From: a virus
Strand: one strand, 5' to 3'
UHGV virus genome: UHGV-0188933
Length of the DNA stretch: 18,246 nt
The translations under genes were made by a program, and so were the position numbers. The stretch's first letter is position 1, and each line of letters starts with the position of its first letter. Positions 3,413-8,245 of this stretch are shown here, piece by piece. The notes below the pieces were generated by a model. That model saw only the letters and a program-made list of their open reading frames with translations. It was not told where the DNA came from and made no database searches.

Positions 3413-3603
3413 ACGCCACAATTCAAACGATACCAGAGCTTCTTATCCAGACACGAGGCAATCAGACCGAAGTGGCAAGGATGCTTTCCTGCGCAAGAGG
3501 AACAGTGCTTAAGTACAACCGAGACAGCAAAGGCGAGCGTCACGTAATAGTTAACGGCGTCCTGATGGTCAAACAGGGCAAGAGGGGAAGACGATGGGCA
3601 TAA
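3409..3603 (+). CDS. ninH: NinH-like protein
   Basis: 64 aa; TIPELLIQTRGNQTEVARMLSCARGTVLKYNRDSKGERHVIVNGVLMV resembles lambda NinH (TIPDMLVEAYGNQTEVARRLKCSRGTVRKY). Position between rusA and Q is as in lambdoid nin regions. Confidence 0.75.
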   Translation: MNATIQTIPELLIQTRGNQTEVARMLSCARGTVLKYNRDSKGERHVIVNGVLMVKQGKRGRRWA

Positions 3604-4082
3604 GAGAACTAAACCTCACCAAAGAGCAGCACGAGTGGCTGAATGGCTGGCTTGAACTGTGGGGGGCATGGGTTTATTCAGGTCGTCTTGAAAAGCGCAT
3701 GAGCAGCGTAATAGCGAAGTTCATGGAGAGCGTAGAGCCGGGAAGAGTTATGACAAGGCCAATGTGCAATGATGATGATGGAATGTTGATTTCTCAGGTC
3801 GTCGATTCCGTCATGTACATTGACAAGAAAGCCTTTGGCATCCTCCTCAGCTACTACGCCCATGGATCTTCCAAGCACGCCATTGCATCTTACTATCATC
3901 GCGTCGCAAGACCTCGCAAGATGTTATGCCGGGGCGGAGGGCGCATTCAAAAACCATCGCTCGCAACCTGTCGTCGGGAAGTTGACGAAATCCTCAATGC
4001 CTCGTTGTTTATGATTTACCCGGTTCTGGATAGTGCGTTTAAAAACCGGAAACGTGTAGAGAAAATTAAACATGTAGCATAG
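3594..4082 (+). CDS. late-gene antiterminator, Q-like
   Basis: 162-aa Cys-containing protein in the Q position (after ninH, before the lysis cassette). Call rests on synteny and size more than on recognised motifs. Confidence 0.55.
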   Translation: MGIRELNLTKEQHEWLNGWLELWGAWVYSGRLEKRMSSVIAKFMESVEPGRVMTRPMCNDDDGMLISQVVDSVMYIDKKAFGILLSYYAHGSSKHAIASYYHRVARPRKMLCRGGGRIQKPSLATCRREVDEILNASLFMIYPVLDSAFKNRKRVEKIKHVA

Positions 4083-4126
4083 AACGTGTTGACATCATTG
4101 AGCAAATGAGCAACACTATTCGCATA

Positions 4127-4168
4127 AGCTGCCGTTAGTGACTCTTAAGTTGCAACGGTGGCTTTTTT
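4127..4168 (+). terminator. hairpin plus T-run downstream of Q (possible short late-leader terminator)
   Basis: 10-bp stem (agctgccgtt / aacggtggct, two G-U pairs) with 17-nt loop, followed by TTTTTTATTT. A TTGACA hexamer lies at 4089-4094. Confidence 0.4.
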
Positions 4169-4172
4169 ATTT

Positions 4173-4247
4173 GGGTCAGTCGTATAAAGGTCATTACGGA
4201 AGGCTGTTAACCTTCTTATCGTGGTTCGAGTCCACGCTATCCCGCCA
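4173..4247 (+). tRNA. tRNA-Asn-like element (anticodon GUU), possibly degenerate
   Basis: Perfect T-arm cgtgg-TTCGAGT-ccacg, perfect anticodon arm gaagg-CTGTTAA-ccttc (U33, anticodon GTT, A37), U8, A14, GG in D-loop, 3' CCA at 4245-4247. Acceptor stem has two mismatches (gggtcag vs ctatccc) and D-stem one. Confidence 0.45.
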
Positions 4248-4283
4248 AACATGCTGGTTTAGCTCCAATGGTAGAGGTGGTAA

Positions 4284-4709
4284 ATGCCGAGCAAAGATTA
4301 CTATCTTAATCGAAGGGCTAGGCTTGCTAAGACCGTGGAAAAGTTGGGTGGTCGTTGCGCGAGTTGCGGATCCGAATATTCGCTTCAGTTTGACCACATA
4401 GACCCTTCCACCAAATCAGCAAATGTAAGCGAGATGCACTATCACTCAGATTAGGTGTTTTATGCTGAGGTTGAAAAGTGCCAACTACTATGTTCTGCAT
4501 GCCACATTCAGAAAACCAAATTTGACCTTAGCTACTTAGTAGCTGGTGAGCTGAATGGTATGAGCAAGCTAACAATGGACAGCGTCCAGTTCATCAGAGA
4601 AAACTACATTCCACGACATAAGGTTTATGGAGCCAGAGGGCTAGGGAGAATGTTTGGTGTAACACATCAAACAGTGCTTTCAGCCTTAAATGGCGAAAGC
4701 TGGAAATAA
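4284..4709 (+). pseudogene. HNH endonuclease interrupted by in-frame TAG at 4452-4454
   Basis: Frame from ATG 4284 reads ...CASCGSEYSLQFDHIDPSTKSANVSEMHYHSD*VFYAEVEKCQLLCSACHIQKT...; the C-x2-C, DH, N and C-x2-CH elements of one HNH motif are split by the stop. Good SD (gaggtgg) upstream. Confidence 0.7.
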
Positions 4710-5126
4710 GCTGCGCGTCAGAGGTTCGATTCCTTTGCCCGCTCCAGTAAAAGCTTTCCAGTCTGCGATGATGGGTTCCCCGGAGTGACTGGAAAGCGAC
4801 CTGGTTTTGAATGGGCGCTGCTTTTTGCAAAATTGCTGTGTGAAAATACTGACCTTTGGGTTCAGCGCTCATCCAAAAGCATCACGTGAATTCACCAACG
4901 CTCATGTACTCTCCAGGAAACAATAAGTGATTCTGAAAAGTTCCGGTTAGATATTGCCCCGGTCACCGGATGATTTTATCTTTTGGTTCGTGGTGAATCC
5001 CCCTATGCGGCGGGGCGTCCAGTCAAACTTTTTTGTCCAGGTTTGTTTGCGCGGAACTAGTCGGCTGGGGCTGTTCCACCGGGAGGCACCCGGCGCCACC
5101 TCCTTGACGGTATTGTTATTTTTCAT

Positions 5127-5153
5127 GCCTGTTCGTCCGAGCAGGCTTTTTTT
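5127..5153 (+). terminator. intrinsic terminator about 410 bp upstream of holin (tR'-like)
   Basis: 8-bp stem (gcctgttc / gagcaggc with one G-U), 4-nt loop, then TTTTTTT. Confidence 0.6.
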
Positions 5154-5563
5154 GCCCGCATTATCTTCATTGAAAACTGGCAACTCAGAGAATCATCCAA
5201 ATTAAAAAAGCAGCAACGAGAGCGATTACTAATACATTCTTCGCTTTTTCTCTTCTGCTGGCCTTCACAAAAGGATTCACTATCCGGCAGTGGCTACACA
5301 CAAGTGATTCTGGGTTAATTAACTTTCCGCAGTAGGGGCAGGGCTTGATAATCATTGGTACTAATTAAGTTGTGAGAACGTAGTCTCATTTAACCACATT
5401 TATCGAGTTGTTTTACTAATGGTCTAGTTATTTCAGACATATTCATCAATTTCAGGCTCACGGGAATCATCCGCTACGTGCTTTGTTGATAAATCCAGCC
5501 CGTGAAGCCTGACCCTTTTCAAACACACACACAGCACCATCCGGAAAATCGGAGGTGAGGCCT

Positions 5564-5887
5564 ATGAAAATGCCATACAAACAAGATTTCATCGCTGCGC
5601 TACTTGCCGCCAAGGAGCAGGGTATTGGTGCAATGCTGGCTTTTATCATGGCGTATCTGCGTGGTCGCTATAACGGCGGCGCGGTAACAAAAACGCTAAT
5701 TGATGCGCTGATGTGCGCGATGATTGCCTGGTTCGTTCGTGACCTTCTGGACTTTATCGGCCTGAGCAGCAACCTCGCCTACATAGCCAGCGTCTTTATT
5801 GGATACATCGGCACCGATTCGATCGGCAATCTTATTAAAAAACTTGCAGCAAAAAAGGCGGGAGTTGACGATGCAAACCAGTCCTGA
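5564..5887 (+). CDS. S: class I holin, lambda S family, with dual-start motif
   Basis: [64 protein letters not shown]... is close to lambda S ([39 protein letters not shown]...). ATG-AAA-ATG with SD ggagg upstream. An in-frame GTG at 5555 gives the longer ORF in the track. Confidence 0.9.
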
Positions 5888-6320
5888 CGGAATTGCTCTG
5901 ATAAAAAAATTTGAAGGTTGTCGGCTGACTGCTTACCCCGACCCCGGAACGGGAGATGCGCCGTGGACCATCGGCTATGGCTGGACCCATCCGGTTGACG
6001 GAAAGCCAGTAAAGCGCGGTATGACTATCGACCAGCAAACCGCTGACAGGCTTCTGAAAACAGGGCTTGTTGGTTATGAGAATGACGTGCTGAAAGTTGT
6101 CAGGGTGAAGCTGACACAAGGCCAGTTCGACGCACTGGTGTCGTTCGCTTACAACGTTGGGTCGCGTGCTCTTTCCACATCTACACTGCTGAAAAAGCTG
6201 AATGCTGGCGATATAAAAGGCGCGGCAGATGAATTTCTGCGCTGGAATAAATCAGGCGGAAAGGTGATGCCGGGGCTCACGAATCGCCGCAAGGCAGAGC
6301 GAGCTCTGTTCCTGTCATGA
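5871..6320 (+). CDS. endolysin, T4-lysozyme-like (GH24) muramidase
   Basis: Protein from ATG 5871: [40 protein letters not shown]... with E-x8-D-x5-T catalytic spacing; ends [11 protein letters not shown] like P22 gp19-type lysozymes. Start overlaps holin end. Confidence 0.85.
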
Positions 6321-6784
6321 TTAGCGCACTGGTTAAGCGTTACTGGCTGCAGTTGCTGGTGCTGGCGTTAATCGGCGCACTGGCTTTCTTCGTGAACCAC
6401 TACCGCGACAACGCCATCACTTACAGAGACCAGCGCGATAAGGCCACTGAGAAACTCCTCCTGGCGACCGCCACCATTAAAGACATGCAGACCCGCCAGC
6501 GTGATGTCGCTGCACTGGATGCCAAATACACCGGAGAACTGGCTGATGCGAAAGAAACCATTGAGCGTCTGCATAGCGATGTCATTGCTGGCCGTAAGCG
6601 CCTGCAAGTCGCCGCCACCTGTGCAAAGTCAACGACCGGAGCCAGCAGCATGGGCGATGGAGAAAGCCCAAGACTTACAGCAGATGCTGAACTCAATTAT
6701 TACCGTCTACGAAGTGGAATCGACAAGATAACCGCGCAGGTTAACTACCTGCAGGAATACATCAGGACGCAATGCCTGAAATAA
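6317..6784 (+). CDS. Rz: i-spanin Rz
   Basis: 155 aa with N-terminal TM segment ([16 protein letters not shown]) and coiled-coil-like remainder, immediately after the endolysin (ATGA overlap). Confidence 0.8.
6546..6731 (+). CDS. Rz1: o-spanin Rz1 (lipoprotein) embedded in the +1 frame of Rz
   Basis: [33 protein letters not shown]...: signal peptide with lipobox VSAC and proline-rich mature part, wholly inside Rz. Confidence 0.75.
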
Positions 6785-8089: not shown

Positions 8090-8245
8090 ATGGCAAAGCT
8101 CACCGACAAACAAGAGCTGTTTGCCCGTGAGTACCTGAAAGATTTAAACGCCACACAGGCAGCTATCAGGGCGGGTTGGGCAAAAGCTCAACAACATGCC
8201 GTATTACCGCGCGAAACAATACGCGCAGATGCTTGGCATCGATGA
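8090..8245 (+). pseudogene. terminase small subunit, N-terminal stub (51 codons)
   Basis: MAKLTDKQELFAREYLKDLNATQAAIRAGW... is the conserved N-terminal helix-turn-helix of Terminase_2-type small subunits; frame ends at 8243-8245 after diverging. SD ggag 8 nt upstream. Confidence 0.7.

Follow-up and report, generated by a model that had tools for sequence, protein, structure and literature searches.

In Stx phages such as 933W, the tRNA genes ileZ-argN-argO are located between Q and stx and are transcribed with the late operon. The occurrence of a tRNA-Asn-like element behind a Q gene in an 18,246-base stretch of viral DNA (UHGV virus genome UHGV-0188933, hereafter the window) raises the question of what such an element represents when several of its stem pairs are mismatched. 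An earlier note on this DNA had described a perfect anticodon arm and T-arm, a CUGUUAA loop and a 3' CCA, together with two mismatches in the acceptor stem and one in the D stem. Three explanations were considered: a functional divergent phage tRNA located between Q and the lysis genes, a decaying tRNA gene or a tRNA-derived fragment. The analysis reported here favors the first of them. With a probability of about 0.85, this element is a genuine Q-dependent late phage tRNA-Asn(GUU), orthologous to the one of coliphage 21 and placed as the opening gene of the late transcript. The coordinates of the features discussed below are collected in Table 1.

Table 1. Features identified from the Q gene to the remnants of the second tRNA gene (positions in the window).
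Feature	Position	Strand	Evidence
Q antiterminator gene, phage 21 type	3594..4082	+	Pfam Phage_antitermQ, E = 8.8e-25; 98.9% identical in DNA to phage 21 over the Q region
Late promoter pR'	4089..4124	+	Sequence identical to annotated phage 21 features (OL657228)
Late terminator tR', hairpin then UUUUUUAUUU	4126..4172	+	Phage 21 terminator homologue; hairpin predicted at -20.2 kcal/mol
tRNA-Asn(GUU) gene, 75 nt, CCA encoded	4173..4247	+	ARAGORN; Rfam tRNA, 51 bits; 74/75 identical to phage 21
5' remnant (nt 1-24) of phage 21-type (type A) tRNA-Thr(UGU)	4253..4276	+	Exact 24-nt match
HNH endonuclease gene in the tRNA-Thr gene	4284..4709	+	KL53 homologue annotated as HNH endonuclease; Pfam HNH match
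3' remnant of type B tRNA-Thr(UGU)	4707..4746	+	35-nt exact match (4707-4741) to positions 35-69

A complete tRNA gene

The single tRNA that ARAGORN identifies in the 18,246 bases has the anticodon GTT, lies on the + strand and spans exactly the positions at which the element had been noticed (4173-4247). Covariance models had been proposed as a check, a score below pseudogene thresholds being expected to count against the gene. The Rfam tRNA model RF00005 matched positions 4173-4244 over its full length (model positions 1-71) with 51.0 bits (E = 1.5e-08), which exceeds the gathering score of 29 by 22 bits. In conventional numbering, the 5' half of the tRNA reads GGGUCAG UC GUAU AAAGGUCA UUAC G GAAGG CUGUUAA and the 3' half CCUUC UUAU CGUGG UUCGAGU CCACG CUAUCCC G CCA. 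Neither the anticodon stem (GAAGG/CCUUC) nor the T stem (CGUGG/CCACG) contains a mismatch, GUU occupies positions 34-36 of the CUGUUAA loop, and the discriminator G73 is followed by a CCA encoded at 4245-4247. This part of the earlier description can thus be read directly in the sequence. The conserved tRNA core, numbered against the Rfam alignment, is also complete (U8, A14, G18-G19, A21, U33, G53-U54-U55-C56, A58 and C61).

The mismatches that had been counted, two in the acceptor stem and one in the D stem, correspond to the non-canonical pairs of the Rfam alignment, which are found at 4-69, 5-68 and 13-22 and at no other pair. They consist of U4.U69 and C5.A68 in the acceptor stem and U13.U22 in the D stem. 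Five of the seven acceptor pairs are standard, with the two mismatches adjacent to each other, while the consensus allele has six of seven. In the predicted minimum-energy fold, the acceptor helix of the window allele is still closed via G1-G3/C70-C72 and A6-G7/C66-U67. Compared with shuffled sequences, the fold gives weak z-scores (-0.6 for the window allele and -1.7 for the consensus), as is usual for single tRNAs. Taken together, the tRNA-Asn features at 4173-4247 exceed chance expectation by far. The element does not qualify as a tRNA pseudogene and the tRNA-derived fragment is rejected, the gene being full length with intact 5' and 3' ends, four arms and a score 22 bits over the threshold.

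The identity elements recognized by the E. coli AsnRS are the anticodon G34-U35-U36 and the discriminator G73. Both are present in the window tRNA-Asn and likewise in the host gene, which occurs in four copies per E. coli genome (asnT/U/V/W). The phage and host tRNAs also have in common the CUGUUAA loop, the T-arm block GGUUCGAGUCC and the GGTTCGAGTCC block, and presumably use the same synthetase. In contrast, the host acceptor stem (UCCUCUG/CAGAGGA) is fully paired and unrelated to that of the phage, and the A31-U39 pair and U16 of the host tRNA, which are determinants for the nuclease AriB, are replaced by G31-C39 and A16 in the window. Since identity is limited to 47 of 78 aligned columns, the comparison with host genes, which had also been suggested beforehand, indicates that the phage tRNA-Asn is not a copy of a host gene.

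Position in the late leader

A comparison of 701 bases around the tRNA-Asn gene revealed 98.9% identity to coliphage 21 over 3900-4276. In the phage 21 record, Q is followed by the -35 box of pR', two Q-binding elements, the -10 box, the late start, a sigma-dependent pause element, tR', tRNA-Asn and tRNA-Thr, the latter starting 5 nt after tRNA-Asn. The phage 21 homologue of the Q gene carries the annotation 'antiterminator' and the terminator feature cites PMID 1704887 as its source. Apart from the length of a T-run, all the annotated phage 21 leader features have the same bases in the window. The promoter pR' is thus composed of a -35 box TTGACA (4089-4094), a -10 box (4112-4117) and a transcription start at the A in position 4124. 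The Q-binding element, ATTGAGCA/AATGAGCA, is located at 4097-4112, the QBE being read as ATTGAGCAAATGAGCA. As to the terminator, tR' has a loop beyond the limit of a simple scan and is missed by it; the assignment of tR' is based on the phage 21 homology and on the predicted fold. Its sequence is the same in phage 21, KL53, Sf6 and SPN9CC except for the length of the T-run, which is one T shorter in the window than in phage 21. The placement of the element in a late leader, as originally proposed, is thus borne out by the whole interval 4080-4172, which matches pR', QBE and tR' of phage 21 apart from this one T.

The last base of tR' directly precedes position 1 of the tRNA-Asn, with no spacer after the U-tract, and the tRNA starts at +50 of the late transcript. 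Between phage 21 and Sf6 or SPN9CC, the block formed by terminator and tRNA is near-invariant, compared with about 82% identity for the whole aligned stretch including the 3' part of the Q gene. Holin, lysozyme and Rz protein are encoded further downstream, at 5555-6784.

From these features, a scheme can be proposed for the expression, processing and charging of the tRNA and for its benefit to the phage. Transcription from pR' would begin at about 4124 and normally end at tR'. In lytic growth, the Q21-type antiterminator would modify RNA polymerase, leading to read-through of tR' into the tRNA, so that, by homology with phage 21, tRNA-Asn would be made in lytic growth only. RNase P would then cut at G1, directly after the terminator U-tract, and 3' trimming would expose the encoded CCA. 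The host AsnRS would likely charge the tRNA through GUU and G73, and the charged tRNA would read AAC and AAU while late proteins are made.

A known phage gene with two lineages

The window element is an ordinary, already known phage 21-type tRNA-Asn, annotated in GenBank and RefSeq. It is identical to the phage 21 gene (CPT_21_64 in OL657228) at 74 of 75 positions and its synteny, Q21 - pR'/QBE - tR' - tRNA-Asn, is the same. The gene is annotated in phage 21, SfI, JLK-2012, Sf6 and SPN9CC, and ARAGORN also found it in ST64T although it is absent from the annotation of that record. Among 5,426 complete E. coli genomes in RefSeq, in which PGAP annotates this tRNA-Asn, 836 have a sequence matching the region. 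Members of this phage 21 type, which include Sf6, SfI, ST64T/L, SPN9CC and many E. coli prophages, have U4.U69, U13.U22, G73 and the encoded CCA in common with the window.

The literature searches on this tRNA yielded genome descriptions only, as far as experimental work was concerned. In SfI, an Asn(GUU)/Thr(UGU) tandem has been located downstream of Q, and the authors found no codon bias that would account for the tRNA-Asn (PMC3636060). In phage L, the first tRNA has been placed 46 bp past the late start, and the decoding of AAC for the capsid gene has been suggested as the role of the tRNA, while the excision of these tRNAs from the late mRNA was left undecided (PMC8022706). The same tRNAs have also been reported in P22-like prophages in a study of epsilon34 (PMC2629481).

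A second, deeply diverged lineage of tRNA-Asn genes was found behind a different Q gene. This type B, as opposed to the phage 21-type or type A, occurs in E. coli L6-21 (L125, 2473-2547), in lambdoid phages of Klebsiella, Enterobacter and Citrobacter and in coliphage HK639. The gene of E. coli L6-21 scores 63.9 bits with the Rfam tRNA model. Like type A, type B is the first gene of a late-leader array after a terminator and has the same anticodon loop. It differs from type A in its D, anticodon and T stems, with a perfect D stem, a 7-nt D loop, a 5-nt variable loop and A8 in place of the near-universal U8 of type A. Both types share one and the same acceptor stem (GGGUCAG/CUGUCCC), together with G73 and CCA, in spite of different flanks.

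In order to compare the helices, stem pairs of 31 distinct alleles were counted by structural position, because the MAFFT alignment of types A and B puts gaps of the D and T stems in the wrong place. Double compensatory changes between the two types were found at seven pairs (11-24, 27-43, 28-42, 29-41, 49-65, 50-64 and 51-63), and at pair 13-22 type A has U.U where type B has C-G. Compensatory changes also occur within types, at 27-43 and 28-42. Because of these changes between and within types, the family is judged to be under selection as a tRNA, all four helices being maintained. Together with the known genes of phage 21, Sf6, SfI and ST64T, this pattern of substitutions argues for the functional divergent phage tRNA that had been considered at first.

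The same alleles shed light on one of the two acceptor mismatches. Pair 4-69 is U.U in 28 of the 31 alleles, U.C in two and U.G in one, and U4.U69 is thus a family-wide conserved mismatch, common to two deeply diverged lineages. The initial description had treated the two acceptor mismatches alike. This does not hold: U4.U69 is a family trait rather than damage, and C5.A68 is a private change discussed below. The conservation of U4.U69 across both lineages may mark a functional constraint. Acceptor mismatches were also tallied across 440 phage tRNAs, but this tally was set aside, since the 3' ends given by ARAGORN vary and make it unreliable.

In several Stx phages which share the Q21-type region (1717, 2851, Nil2 and others), the match to the window stops at about position 4196, and the full tRNA is not carried. 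This position is inside the D arm/anticodon stem of the tRNA-Asn, which places a mosaic boundary within the tRNA gene in those Stx2 phages.

A private substitution in the acceptor stem

The C5.A68 mismatch arises from G68A, at base 4239 of the window, and is the one base which sets the window tRNA apart from that of phage 21. In 119 tRNA-Asn copies with the same anticodon arm, taken from IMG/VR and reference records, position 68 is G without exception and pairs with C5, while nearly all of them have U4.U69. The A68 allele was thus found in none of these 119 copies. It had no exact match in one genome each of 185,579 species and no 100% match in the 5,426 complete E. coli genomes, in which the best match had one mismatch. 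E. coli KL53, the closest relative across the tRNA-HNH region (99.0%), has G68. As it is absent from every copy examined, KL53 included, G68A is private and recent, or may be an error of sequencing.

With this substitution, the Rfam score is 51.0 bits instead of 55.3, and the predicted stability drops from -21.6 to -17.8 kcal/mol, a cost of about 3.8 kcal/mol. The window copy may thus fall slightly short of the consensus in stability or activity, and the two adjacent acceptor mismatches could impair interactions with RNase P, the CCA end or EF-Tu.

A tentative alternative to a fully functional gene, which we regard as possible but rather doubtful, is that the window copy is starting to decay in a degenerating prophage, the 2x2 internal loop created by G68A compromising a function whose loss persists in the absence of lytic growth. 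The private nature of G68A and its cost (3.8 kcal/mol of predicted stability and 4.3 bits) are consistent with this scenario, as is the state of the neighborhood: the adjoining tRNA-Thr gene is destroyed and the HNH gene has a nonsense codon that KL53, although 99% identical, does not have. However, a single substitution of this kind looks the same as a neutral polymorphism or an error in sequencing, the score still exceeds the Rfam threshold by 22 bits and the acceptor helix is closed in the predicted fold. In addition, a C.A mismatch can pair in a wobble-like manner. All positions other than 68 agree with the consensus, and singleton acceptor variants are known elsewhere in the family (U69C, U69G, C70U and C72A). 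The suggestion of a decaying gene thus keeps some ground for this copy, through its private G68A and the decay nearby, but not for the family.

An interrupted tRNA-Thr gene in a possibly composite prophage

While the phage 21 tRNA-Thr is intact, that of the window is cut after nt 24 by the HNH gene. The 3' remnant which follows this gene runs from U36 to about nt 69, its final bases being diverged. Because it matches the type B tRNA-Thr(UGU) exactly at positions 35-69, another candidate identity for 4707-4746, a tRNA-Gly(UCC) remnant, was rejected. The possibility that the HNH reading frame is a clean intron of the tRNA-Thr gene was also rejected: about 12 nt (positions 24-35) are missing, the two halves belong to separate Thr lineages, with acceptor strands that fail to pair.

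The intact HNH homologue of KL53 is a protein of 141 residues (WP_001568783.1) with a Pfam HNH match. In the window, an in-frame TAG at 4452-4454, which results from C4453A (TCG in KL53), splits the reading frame into ORFs of 56 and 84 residues, and the gene is probably a pseudogene in this copy. The junction AGAGGTGGTAAATG, with the break after AGAG, was also found in type B loci. This sequence pattern makes it seem that the HNH gene first inserted into a Thr gene of type B and later reached the type A array, bringing some of its flank along, since the junction shared with type B arrays suggests a mobile (homing) HNH gene moving between array types. Free-standing homing endonucleases behave in this way. 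A similar situation is known in T5, in which HNH genes occur among the tRNA genes, one of them overlapping a pseudo-tRNA. An HNH endonuclease gene hence used the tRNA array as its landing site and destroyed the Thr gene. Since the tRNA-Thr gene was destroyed by the HNH gene and the latter itself carries a nonsense codon, the region around tRNA-Asn shows decay.

Beyond this region, lambdoid homology (HK620, HK75 and mEp506) ends at about 8095, and the tail module (transglycosylase/baseplate) that starts at 8175 belongs to another type of phage. No terminase/packaging or head genes were found between the lysis and tail modules of the window. Upstream, a DnaB-like helicase ORF (822-1856, 344 aa) covers positions 1-136 of the 255 positions of the DnaB_C model and appears truncated. 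The prophage may thus be composite or defective, and, if defective, its tRNA-Asn may be rarely or never expressed. The junction between the early/lysis module and the other module, with the packaging and head genes missing between them, and the truncated appearance of the DnaB-like ORF add to what can be said for a gene starting to decay. A defective prophage would make this reading of G68A plausible, although one substitution does not prove it.

tRNA arrays and codon supply

In 241 arrays, tRNA-Asn is promoter-proximal in every case, and the next genes follow at 80-nt spacing. As these arrays were sampled by Asn-specific patterns, tRNA-Asn is bound to be present in each of them, but nothing in the sampling dictates that it comes first. 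In 110 of the 123 type A arrays, the gene after Asn is Thr(UGU). The other partners are Gly(UCC), Arg(UCU), Phe(GAA) and Met/Ile(CAU), and the partners mostly read A-ending codons which are rare in E. coli. For comparison, the tRNAs of the 933W type occupy a similar interval, between Q and the lysis or toxin genes, and the ileZ-argN-argO set consists of other isoacceptors that read rare codons; they have no sequence relationship to the window tRNA-Asn.

In E. coli, ACA is used about 7 times and Asn codons about 39 times per 1000 codons. In the window ORFs, the corresponding values are 15.5-16.8 for ACA and 45-52 for Asn codons (45 in the late ORFs), with AAC making up 48-57% of the latter. Codon supply thus accounts well for Thr(UGU), since the window ORFs use ACA about twice as often as E. 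coli, and weakly for Asn, the value of the late ORFs being only mildly above that of E. coli, which has four asn genes of its own.

In ST64T, the gene after a consensus tRNA-Asn is a tRNA that resembles Thr but has a changed anticodon arm (L351, 7120-7192), for which ARAGORN makes no call. This tRNA has been read as Leu(UAA) in the phage L study (PMC8022706). It is a further sign of rapid change in the second slot of the array.

Possible roles beyond decoding

An alternative view of the cassette is that it serves mainly against host defence, the phage Asn(GUU) and Thr(UGU) replacing host tRNAs which are cut by nucleases such as AriB of the PARIS system and escaping cleavage themselves through changes at the recognition and cleavage site. 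We consider both parts of this proposal unlikely, albeit worth setting out. In E. coli, AriB has been shown to target the tRNAs for Lys(UUU), for Thr(UGU) and for Asn(GUU), with Thr(UGU) as a prime and Asn(GUU) as a secondary target (PMC12409363). Cleavage takes place between positions 40 and 41, adjoining U36-A-A-U39, and is abolished by U39A and impaired by U16C (PMC12409363). The Lys, Thr and Asn variants of T5 together neutralise PARIS and rescue infection, T5 tRNA-Lys being required for escape (PMC12409363).

The lambdoid cassette contains two of these three isoacceptors, and Thr(UGU) follows Asn in most type A arrays (110 of 123). At positions 36-41, the sequences are UAACCU and UAACCG in Asn of types A and B, and UAAGCG and UAAGCU in Thr of types A and B, compared with UAAUCC in the host. 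All four cassette tRNAs, like the three T5 tRNAs which rescue infection, are thus devoid of U39. The window tRNA-Asn has C39 and U41 where the host has U39 and C41, and position 16 is A in type A, C in type B and U in the host. The failure of codon usage to account for the Asn gene also fits a role in counter-defence. However, Lys(UUU), which is an AriB prime target, is present in none of the 241 arrays, and U39 is also missing in 75% of 375 unrelated phage tRNAs, which makes its loss weak evidence. For Arg(UCU), Gly(UCC) and Met/Ile(CAU) as partners, a supply of rare codons is a fitting role, and the ACA frequency in the window ORFs, about twice that of E. coli, explains Thr(UGU) without defence. 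The Asn(GUU) and Thr(UGU) tRNAs of T5 are the same isoacceptors as those of the cassette and likewise have U39 replaced (UAAGUU and UAAGCA in T5, compared with UAACCU and UAAGCG in the cassette), but they have no sequence relationship to it beyond general tRNA features, and T5 has a Lys(UUU) that the lambdoid arrays do not have.

A bolder version of this proposal can be formulated, to which we give even less credit: the late-leader Asn and Thr tRNAs would be nuclease-resistant replacements that temperate lambdoid phages switch on with Q against PARIS/AriB-type defence rather than a codon supply, and the acceptor stem with U4.U69 might have been selected for recognition or evasion. The correspondence between the Asn/Thr pair and the PARIS targets nevertheless provides a hypothesis that is cheap to test, for a gene whose purpose has been called unclear by the authors who described it.

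Finally, it is very improbable that tRNA-Asn acts mainly in cis, RNase P cleavage removing the terminator/Q-loading leader and setting the end of the late mRNA with decoding as an incidental property: its promoter-proximal position in 241 of 241 arrays, the type A gene abutting the terminator U-tract and the acceptor stem, an RNase P substrate, as the one part invariant between types A and B would fit such a role, but a cleavage signal needs neither the CUGUUAA loop, G73 and CCA kept in both types nor four helices maintained by compensatory change, and the constant presence of Asn follows from Asn-specific sampling. A late tRNA-Asn which would decode AAC and AAU remains the preferred reading of the element.

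Matches to sRNA families in late leaders

The leader of type B matches the Rfam model of isrJ, a Salmonella Hfq-binding sRNA. In E. coli L6-21, this match (L125, 2390-2463; 68.7 bits) spans the interval from the lambdoid Q gene to the type B tRNA-Asn, which corresponds to the late leader RNA from pR' to tR'. As the match coincides with this stretch, IsrJ looks like a prophage late-leader transcript. In the window itself, the Rfam model of STnc100, a gammaproteobacterial sRNA family, matches 4965-5157 with 71.7 bits (threshold 47), and the match ends in a terminator-like hairpin (5127-5146) followed by a T-run. The same element is found in E. coli L6-21 (L125, 3264-3456). Being flanked by the HNH/tRNA remnant and the holin gene, this 'sRNA' is located within the leader of a lambdoid late operon.
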